From a virus (taxonomy: Duplodnaviria > Heunggongvirae > Uroviricota > Caudoviricetes), in IMG/VR virus record IMGVR_UViG_2663763009_000009, positions 1 to 7,910 of that record: a stretch of 7,910 nt of DNA; one strand, given 5' to 3'. A model generated the notes under the pieces. That model was not told the origin of the DNA and did no database searches. It saw nothing but the letters and a program-made list of their open reading frames with translations. The position numbers and the translations under genes are program-made. Below, in pieces: positions 4,345-5,881 of this stretch; position 1 is the stretch's first letter; each line of letters begins with the position of its first letter.

Positions 4345-4448
4345 GCAGCCACACCTCTGATACAAGAACGGTAGCTGGGCCAGTTGAACGACAACCAGTT
4401 GCGCCCCCCGTCTGTGATCCTGTCGGCAATGCGGGGGCTGATGAACGC
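4341..4448 (-). pseudogene. 3' remnant (35 codons) of the gene upstream of the helicase, presumably a replication initiator/loader, truncated by IS2
   Basis: An open frame runs from the IS2 boundary (4448) to a TGA that overlaps the helicase ATG (ATGA arrangement at 4341-4344), the typical coupling between initiator and helicase genes. Product ...AFISPRIADRITDGGRNWLSFNWPSYRSCIRGVAA is not recognisable. The rest of the gene is absent because IS2 begins at 4449. Confidence 0.3.
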
Positions 4449-4459
4449 TGGATTTGCCC

Positions 4460-5365
4460 CTATATTTCCAGACACCTGTTATCACTTAACCCATTACTGG
4501 CTTGCTGCCGTAGATATTCCCGTGGCGAGCGATAACCCAGTGCACTATGCGGATGCCATTCGTTATAATGCTCGAACGCCTCTGCAAGGTTCTTTGCTGC
4601 CGTTAACCCGTCTGGTTTGGGCATGACACTGATGTAGTCACGCTTTATCGTTTTCACGAAGCTCTCTGCTATGCCGTTACTCTCCGGACTCCGCACCGCC
4701 GTGCTCTTCGGTTCAAGCCCCAACATCCGGGCAAACTGCCGTGTTTCATTAGCCCGGTAGCATGAACCATTATCCGTCAGCCACTCTACTGGAGACGCCG
4801 GAAGCTCGTTGCCGAAGCGGCGTTCCACCGCTCCCAGCATGACGTCCTGTACTGTTTCACTGTTGAAGCCGCCCGTAGTGACCGCCCAGTGCAGTGCCTC
4901 ACGGTCACAGCAGTCCAGCGCGAACGTGACTCGCAGTTTTTCTCCGTTATCACAGCGGAACTCGAACCCGTCAGAGCACCATCGCTGATTACTTTCTTTC
5001 ACAGCCACTCTGCCTGTATGTGCCCGTTTCGATGGCGGTACAGCAGGTTTTCGCTCAAGCAACAGCGCATTCTGGCGCATGATCCGGTAAACACGTTTGG
5101 CATTGATCGCAGGCATACCATCAAGTTCTGCCTGTCTGCGAAGCAGCGCCCATACCCGACGATAACCATACGTGGGCAGCTCTCCGATAACATGGTGTAT
5201 ACGGAGAAGCACATCCGTATCATCAGTGTGACGACTGCGGCGGCCATCCATCCAGTCATCGGTTCGTCTGAGAATGACGTGCAACTGCGCACGCGACACC
5301 CGGAGACAACGGCTGACTAAGCTTACTCCCCATCCCCGGGCAATAAGGGCGCGTGCGCTATCCAC
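4460..5365 (-). CDS. insD: IS2 transposase OrfB (InsD), 301 aa; expressed mainly as an InsCD fusion by -1 frameshift
   Basis: Protein [30 protein letters not shown]...[31 protein letters not shown] is essentially IS2 InsD as I recall it, with the DDE integrase core. The first codon at 5363-5365 is GTG. Confidence 0.95.
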
Positions 5366-5688
5366 TTTTTTGCCCGTCCATATTCAACGGCTTCTTTGAG
5401 GAGTTCATTTTCCATCGTTTTCTTGCCGAGCAGGCGCTGGAGTTCTTTAATCTGCTTCATGGCGGCAGCAAGTTCAGAGGCAGGAACAACCTGTTCTCCG
5501 GCGGCGACAGCAGTAAGACTTCCTTCCTGGTATTGCTTACGCCAGAGAAATAACTGGCTGGCTGCTACACCATGTTGCCGGGCAACGAGGGAGACCGTCA
5601 TCCCCGGTTCAAAGCTCTGCTGAACAATTGCGATCTTTTCCTGTGTGGTACGCCGTCTGCGTTTCTCCGGCCCTAAGACATCAATCAT
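5323..5688 (-). CDS. insC: IS2 OrfA (InsC) helix-turn-helix protein, 121 aa
   Basis: From the ATG at 5688 the product [56 protein letters not shown]... matches IS2 InsC. The track's 15 extra upstream codons lie in the IS2 terminal repeat. The slippery heptamer AAAAAAG (complement of 5365-5371) sits in the insC/insD overlap. Confidence 0.95.
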
Positions 5689-5881
5689 CTGTACTCCAAT
5701 GACTAGTCTAAAAACTAGTATTAAGACTATCACTTATTTAAGTGATACTGGTTGTCTGGAGATTCAGGGGGCCAGTCTAATGTCAGCGCCAGTGATATAA
5801 GACGGTAATTCGCCATTTGGATTGTCCGCTCCACCCAACATGTTGTTTCCTTAAGGTTCTCACACCAGAAAGGACATCAAC

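Follow-up and report, generated by a model that had tools for sequence, protein, structure and literature searches.

A lambdoid prophage remnant of Shigella sonnei truncated by IS2, and its doubtful junction with IS21

Deletions mediated by insertion sequences (ISs) and IS-by-IS recombination have been described for Shigella (Hawkey et al., 2020, PMC7373316; Seferbekova et al., 2021, PMC8072062). The locus described here lies in a stretch of 7,910 nucleotides, called "the window" in the following, which is filed as the IMG/VR virus record IMGVR_UViG_2663763009_000009 (Caudoviricetes). It does not differ in kind from the described rearrangements, with which it shares a prophage truncated at an IS, non-cognate flanks and a host carrying hundreds of IS copies; only its particular IS2-IS21 junction is unrecorded. 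An IS that truncates a prophage and reshuffles a Shigella genome is well documented, and the locus carries little biological weight in that respect.

The two elements involved have close relatives in the same hosts. IS2 of Escherichia coli and Shigella, a member of the IS3 family, is 1331 bp long, has imperfect terminal repeats and encodes OrfA and OrfB with an A6G frameshift site. The copy in the window has all of these features, but it lacks the 5-bp duplication and appears to combine a left part of the resident S. sonnei type with a right part of the common type. The chromosomal IS21 of S. sonnei is 2130 bp long and encodes IstA and IstB; the copy in the window, which represents the commonest S. 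sonnei variant, is 100% identical to five of the ten copies of chromosome CP104423.1, but its left tip is 1 bp away from an IS2 tip and its right flank falls past the window.

Two further structures resemble the junction itself. In the plasmid pMTY9757_IncFII (NZ_CP128933.1), the two elements have the same relative orientation, with the left tip of IS21 against the orfA-side end of IS2, but IS21 lies 15 bp inside IS2, the tip of which is removed, whereas in the window both tips are intact and separated by one A. The other structure is the chimera that arises in short-read assemblies from collapsed repeats or path switches. Such chimeras pass from unique into multi-copy sequence, end on a repeat boundary, carry majority variants and are accompanied by sister mosaics, as is the case here; for the window, however, the chimeric status is presumptive.

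The prophage remnant and its IS2

Judging from sequence identity, S. sonnei is the source of the window. Positions 1-5237 are 100% identical to S. sonnei 53G and other S. sonnei chromosomes (L005-L012; such handles denote fetched loci), and positions 1-5779 align at 99.88% to nine S. sonnei chromosomes, all of which pass from the prophage gene into IS2 at the identical junction. The exact helicase protein is encoded by S. sonnei chromosomes including HE616528, which we take to be the chromosome of strain 53G. Neither the window nor its left prophage/IS2 junction was found in the complete E. coli genomes searched.

The genes to the left of IS2 (Table 1) mark this segment, by their sequences, as the remnant of a lambdoid prophage of S. 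sonnei, with a module of antiterminator Q, RusA, DnaB-like helicase and helicase loader. The loader is cut by IS2, and the translation of what is left, AFISPRIADRITDGGRNWLSFNWPSYRSCIRGVAA*, aligns to the C-terminus of an intact homologue of E. coli VL40 (L002, 15228-16106), so that the earlier note on this DNA was right in taking the left side of IS2 for a prophage replication-gene remnant. The intact gene encodes 292 aa, and its product matches Pfam IstB_IS21 and Bac_DnaA; after GAACGC, where the window passes into IS2, it goes on with CCACAAC. In VL40, an intact relative of the kind that the note had recommended for alignment, the loader is preceded upstream by genes for an LvrA-related protein, small genes, and genes for Rha and for Cro- and CI-like regulators. 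In L005-L012, holin, lysozyme, terminase and portal genes come next, beyond the shared prophage segment. The CAT-anticodon tRNA of the prophage tRNA cluster (642-718) is called tRNA-Met by ARAGORN and tRNA-Ile in the annotation of VL40; it may be a lysidine-type tRNA-Ile2.

Table 1. Features of the window, with positions counted from its first base
Feature	Positions	Strand	Basis or remark
Prophage tRNA cluster: Gly(TCC), Thr(TGT), Arg(TCT), CAT-anticodon tRNA	408-718	-	ARAGORN; same cluster annotated in E. coli VL40
ORF6N-domain protein, 187 aa, prophage gene	908-1471	-	Pfam PF10543, E=8.8e-21
Antiterminator Q, 128 aa	1952-2338	-	Pfam PF06530, E=2.2e-52
RusA Holliday-junction resolvase, 123 aa	2328-2699	-	Pfam PF05866, E=7.5e-15
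Prophage DnaB-like replicative helicase, 463 aa	2953-4344	-	Pfam DnaB_C, E=7.8e-73
DnaC/IstB-like helicase-loader remnant, last 35 codons and stop, cut by IS2	4341-4448	-	
Left IS2 flank AACGC	4444-4448		In a simple insertion, these would be the duplicated 5 bp; every S. sonnei locus examined has the same flank
IS2, complete, 1331 bp	4449-5779	- (transposase strand)	End motifs, terminal repeats, OrfA/OrfB
IS2 left part	4449-5237	-	No difference from the prophage-resident copy of S. sonnei chromosomes; 26 sites (4475-5003) differ from the common Shigella-type
IS2 OrfB, 301 aa, intact, -1 frame	4460-5365	-	
IS2 right part	5238-5779	-	Differs from the resident copy at 5238, 5506, 5671, 5692, 5693, 5737, 5738
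IS2 OrfA, 121 aa, intact	5323-5688	-	
IS2 A6G slippery/frameshift motif CAAAAAAG	5365-5372	-	Read directly
CTAA, left 4-bp target repeat in the case of an IS21 insertion at the tip of IS2	5777-5780		Suggested by the duplications of S. sonnei IS21
Single A between IS2 IRL tip and IS21 left tip	5780		G in the reference S. sonnei flank
IS21, complete, 2130 bp	5781-7910	+	Boundaries calibrated on S. sonnei copies
IstA, 390 aa	5882-7054	+	Pfam rve and Mu-transpos_C_2 recorded for the exact protein
IstB, 265 aa, overlapping istA	7054-7851	+	Pfam IstB_IS21 recorded for the exact protein

The orfB-side end of IS2 (IRR) at 4449 reads TGGATTTGCCCC..., and the orfA-side end (IRL) at 5779 reads ...GGGGGCCAGTCTA. 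The terminal motifs, TGGATTTGCCCC... and TAGACTGGCCCC..., are the same as in 12 E. coli IS2 copies, the imperfect terminal repeats found computationally have their arms at 4457-4489 and 5738-5770, and the Pfam records of the exact OrfA and OrfB proteins list the domains HTH_Tnp_1, rve and rve_3. As the earlier note had stated, with correct coordinates and bases, no target duplication is present, since the flanks AACGC and ATGTC (5780-5784) do not match. As a control for the ends, the same motifs were applied to every IS2 in the fetched loci, and all 12 independent E. coli copies (L001, L004, L025-L034) are 1331 bp long and have a perfect 5-bp duplication. Because the same boundaries give perfect duplications in each of these cases, the missing duplication is real and not a boundary error. 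A shift of the boundaries, which that note had considered as a way to regain matching 5-bp repeats, is ruled out by the same controls. The element is a genuine IS2 but, in agreement with the note, not a simple insertion, as it has non-matching flanks both in the window (ATGTC) and in the chromosomes (GCAAC); the duplication is absent because its two flanks were never part of one insertion event. A Shigella-type IS2 elsewhere in S. sonnei CP104423.1 (L015, 10336-11665) has no duplication either (TTTGT versus GTGTA), and it clusters with an IS3-family element and an IS21.

Loss of the prophage early region before the arrival of IS21

In the nine S. sonnei chromosomes, as in the IMG/VR contig L053, this IS2 interrupts the loader gene at exactly the position seen in the window. 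On its far side they read GCAACTAAAGC..., so that the flank is GCAAC and AACGC is not duplicated. This flank sits within the fragment of an AIDA-type autotransporter of 459 aa with six AIDA repeats (E=1.2e-46), which adjoins a DUF5507/5508 gene, and no IS21 is found near the prophage IS2 in any of the nine chromosomes or in L053. Since the chromosomes already carry this non-cognate flank and have no IS21, the early region was lost in the lineage before IS21 came and independently of it. The loss is therefore due to a deletion associated with IS2 or to an exchange between IS2 copies.

The earlier note had proposed that an IS-mediated deletion or recombination removed the prophage early region. 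The part that concerns IS2 holds, as the early region is absent beside IS2 throughout the lineage, whereas the implied connection with IS21 does not, given a reference flank of GCAAC and no IS21 there. The early-region deletion is thus real and old, whereas the IS21 neighbour may not be real. An IS2 on a ColV plasmid (L004) shares the GCAAC flank with the S. sonnei copy; this was dismissed as a coincidence, as the sequences diverge after 5 bp.

A hybrid IS2 and the origin of the IS21 neighbour

IS21 starts at 5781 with TGTCAGCGCCAGTG. Its boundaries were calibrated on the ten copies of CP104423.1, which are 2130-2132 bp long, start with TGTCAGCG and end with GTTGACA, and the termini are TGTCAG...TTGACA. 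A perfect 4-bp duplication flanks nine of these ten copies and eight of nine copies from other genomes. IS21 and the window end on one and the same base (7910). The junction reads ...CCAGTCTA-A-TGTCAGCG..., which bears out the lone A followed by an IS21 terminus reported from the first reading. The accompanying hint that one IS had inserted at or beside the end of the other also fits the contact of the tips, in either order: IS21 into CTAA (three IS2 bases and the A), or IS2 into ATGTC (the A and four IS21 bases), each of which leaves both tips intact. In the former case, the right copy of CTAA would fall beyond the window end, past 7910.

The interior of IS2 is what sets the window apart from the S. 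sonnei chromosomes. All seven sites of difference lie in 5238-5738, to the right of a stretch (1-5237) in which the sequences are identical; at these sites the resident copy has 5238T, 5506C, 5671T, 5692C/5693T and 5737A/5738A. From 5238 to 5779, the window is instead identical to the common Shigella-type IS2, save a 1-nt indel in a T-run at 5371. Shigella-type copies (L015, L024 and a second copy in L005) have 26 differences from the window in 4475-5003 and no substitution in 5004-5779; this absence of substitutions was counted in L015 and L024, and positions 1-187 of L024 are 100% identical to 5593-5779. As all seven differences lie to the right of 5237 and the match to the Shigella type begins at 5004, the sequence comparison therefore points to a hybrid, with a left part from the resident copy and a right part from the common type, in which the right third of IS2, the A and IS21 would come from elsewhere. 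With a Shigella-type copy as the partner, the exchange or switch would fall in the interval 5004-5237. The pattern is that of an exchange between two IS2 copies, real or in silico, as one side belongs to one copy, the other side to another, and a single switch interval separates them.

It follows from the same comparison that 5004-7910 is made only of multi-copy S. sonnei sequence, namely the right part of the common IS2 and IS21. Neither this nor the hybrid nature of IS2 was part of the earlier reading. As the stretch from 5004 onwards holds multi-copy sequence throughout, the join between IS2 and IS21 may be a product of assembly and not a genomic structure. At both ends, the window looks like a short-read contig that stopped because of a repeat. 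There are 23 copies of IS2 in S. sonnei 53G, and the population table for S. sonnei lists 26 IS21 sites, including singleton sites. For drafts of IS-rich genomes, this calls for caution: the absence of a target duplication cannot be read as a deletion until reads span the repeat.

In the window, the reference flank gives way to the IRL-proximal part of IS2 (seemingly from within 5004-5237), the single A and IS21; the cause we infer. With a probability of roughly 0.5, we attribute the join to an assembler or scaffolder. The contig would have run from the unique prophage flank into IS2, where the majority IS2 sequence would have replaced the few variants that are specific to the resident copy. 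The collapsed contig of IS21, with its exact boundaries, would then have been appended, or the path would have taken the IS2-IS21 junction of another IS2 copy, and the actual neighbour of the prophage IS2 in the strain would be the autotransporter fragment of the reference arrangement. By our own estimate, a random insertion brings the two tips within 1 bp of each other at a chance of about 1e-5 to 1e-4 per event. Two intact tips within 1 bp are thus improbable as the result of insertion and natural where collapsed repeat contigs are abutted, which inclines us to an assembly join.

Draft assemblies of the same locus display comparable structures. Ten IMG/VR draft contigs of S. sonnei carry the same left junction, and seven of them reach no more than 30-420 bp into IS2. 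The other three extend further, and only L053 among them is reference-like. L054 (IMGVR_UViG_2698536408_000009) changes from resident-copy to Shigella-type variants between 4541 and 4627, and L045 (IMGVR_UViG_2740892272_000010) has mixed variants, with 5238C together with 5506C. Mosaic IS2 interiors are thus common among the drafts of this locus, and the finished chromosomes are uniform. The starts of L045 and of the window are 31 bp apart, which fits draft contigs that break at a shared repeat. In positions 5577-7513 of L045, the prophage IS2 breaks off at window position 5608, where the chromosomal hchA region follows, and the contig part ends in the tip of an IS1; L045 therewith provides a third, different right-hand neighbour for the prophage IS2.

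Several points weigh against an assembly join. The role of the assembler is deduced from sequence, and careful assemblers usually halt at branch points, so that a contig which spans one may have real support from read pairs or long reads. Both IS-by-IS recombination and new IS21 insertions are documented in S. sonnei, and IS21 is found in or beside IS2 in complete replicons, as in pMTY9757 (15 bp inside the IRL) and in CP104423.1 (L024). Furthermore, the IS2 of the window is 2 nt away from natural E. coli copies (L025 and L031) and need not be an S. sonnei hybrid.

These points lead to a doubtful though possible alternative, in which the join is a true structure of the strain, produced there by recombination between two IS2 copies. 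A second IS2, of the common Shigella or the canonical type, would have stood tip to tip with IS21, and a crossover left of 5238 would have produced an inversion, deletion or translocation that set IS21 beside the prophage remnant; the donor contact itself would have arisen from an insertion of IS21 into CTAA at the IS2 tip or of IS2 into ATGTC at the IS21 tip. The confinement of the seven differences to 5238-5738 is the pattern of a single crossover, and S. sonnei offers the material for it, with its 23 IS2 copies, strain-specific IS21 sites, active IS21 and an IS-by-IS recombination that is routine in Shigella. The IS21 copies in or beside IS2 in complete replicons are likewise consistent with it, as is the other S. 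sonnei IS2 (L015) that has no duplication, and assembled contigs are more often right than wrong. However, two strain-specific events would be needed, the tip-to-tip junction and the exchange, and the junction occurs in no collection searched. In all S. sonnei chromosomes examined the autotransporter flank is kept, the multi-copy sequence to the right of 5004 with its end at the IS21 tip has the look of a repeat-limited assembly, and sister drafts carry other mosaic IS2 interiors.

The junction was searched both exactly and with a spacer of 0-20 bp. The IS2-A-IS21 junction was found in none of 5426 complete E. coli genomes, nor in PLSDB, IMG/VR, the GTDB representatives or JGI metagenomes, and it is absent at all ten IS21 copies of CP104423.1. 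Look-ups of IstA, IstB and IS2 OrfB gave, among the matches listed, 20 IS21 and 10 IS2 places, none with the junction, and two small open reading frames that span it are not on record in the gene-position index.

It is also conceivable that the contact is real and end-directed, in that IS21, through the choice of deformable DNA by IstB, or IS2 prefers the tip of the other element. We consider this unlikely. In the literature, searched for IS21 targeting of IS ends, the one preference found is a general one, for DNA that is deformable or promoter-adjacent. If it were true, end-directed insertion would form head-to-head IS2-IS21 composites that drive rearrangements in S. sonnei.

Quite unlikely, in our judgement, is a nesting of two simple insertions. 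IS2 would have duplicated AACGC in the loader gene, and a later insertion of IS21 into CTAA would have split the right copy after its first A, so that CTAA-ACGCCCACAAC..., the rest of the loader and the early region would lie beyond 7910 and the reference arrangement of S. sonnei would be a later derivative. The A at 5780 is indeed the first base of AACGC (by chance in one of four cases), the duplications of IS21 are 4 bp long, and the IS2 is coherent and near-canonical, at 2 nt from L025 and L031. Against this, the deleted arrangement is already present in every S. sonnei chromosome examined and in L053, and the identity of 100% over 5237 bp gives no sign of a deep-branching origin. IMG/VR contains no IS2 IRL followed by AACGC and loader sequence, the three AACGC matches being unrelated sites, and no contig in which the right end of IS21 is followed by CTAA.

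Very improbable is a join made by IS21 itself, through intramolecular transposition of a nearby copy to the IS2 tip with deletion or inversion of the DNA between them. IS21 is active in S. sonnei, and two copies have no duplications (L001, L003), but IS2 is followed by an A and not by the G of the reference flank, and the seven changed sites inside IS2 are left unexplained. The same A instead of G after IS2 and the seven internal differences exclude a plain insertion of IS21 into the reference arrangement of S. sonnei. On the whole, the hybrid IS2 join is an ordinary repeat-mediated join, made by the cell or by the assembler, and as such an event of a known kind.

The IS21 copies in pMTY9757_IncFII (L003, 5072-7216) and in L001 (6001-9467), which adjoin or contain an IS2, have 4-bp flanks that do not match (ATTC/GCTG and TATC/ACCC, respectively), so that IS21 joints lacking a duplication occur in finished E. 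coli replicons, too. In S. sonnei CP104423.1 (L024, 4748430-4761602), an IS21 lies within an IS2 (4973-8436 of the locus, at about IS2 position 403-411) and is flanked by the 4-bp duplication ACAG; with no similar place in the other genomes read, this insertion looks strain-specific. GCA_900448845.1 (UGBG01000002.1; L040-L044) has five IS21 copies of 3567 bp, in each of which an identically placed element of the IS110 family interrupts the end of istA (after the equivalent of window position 7032). Four of the five composites of IS21 and the IS110-family element have clean 4-bp duplications, and the composite therefore appears to have transposed as a unit.
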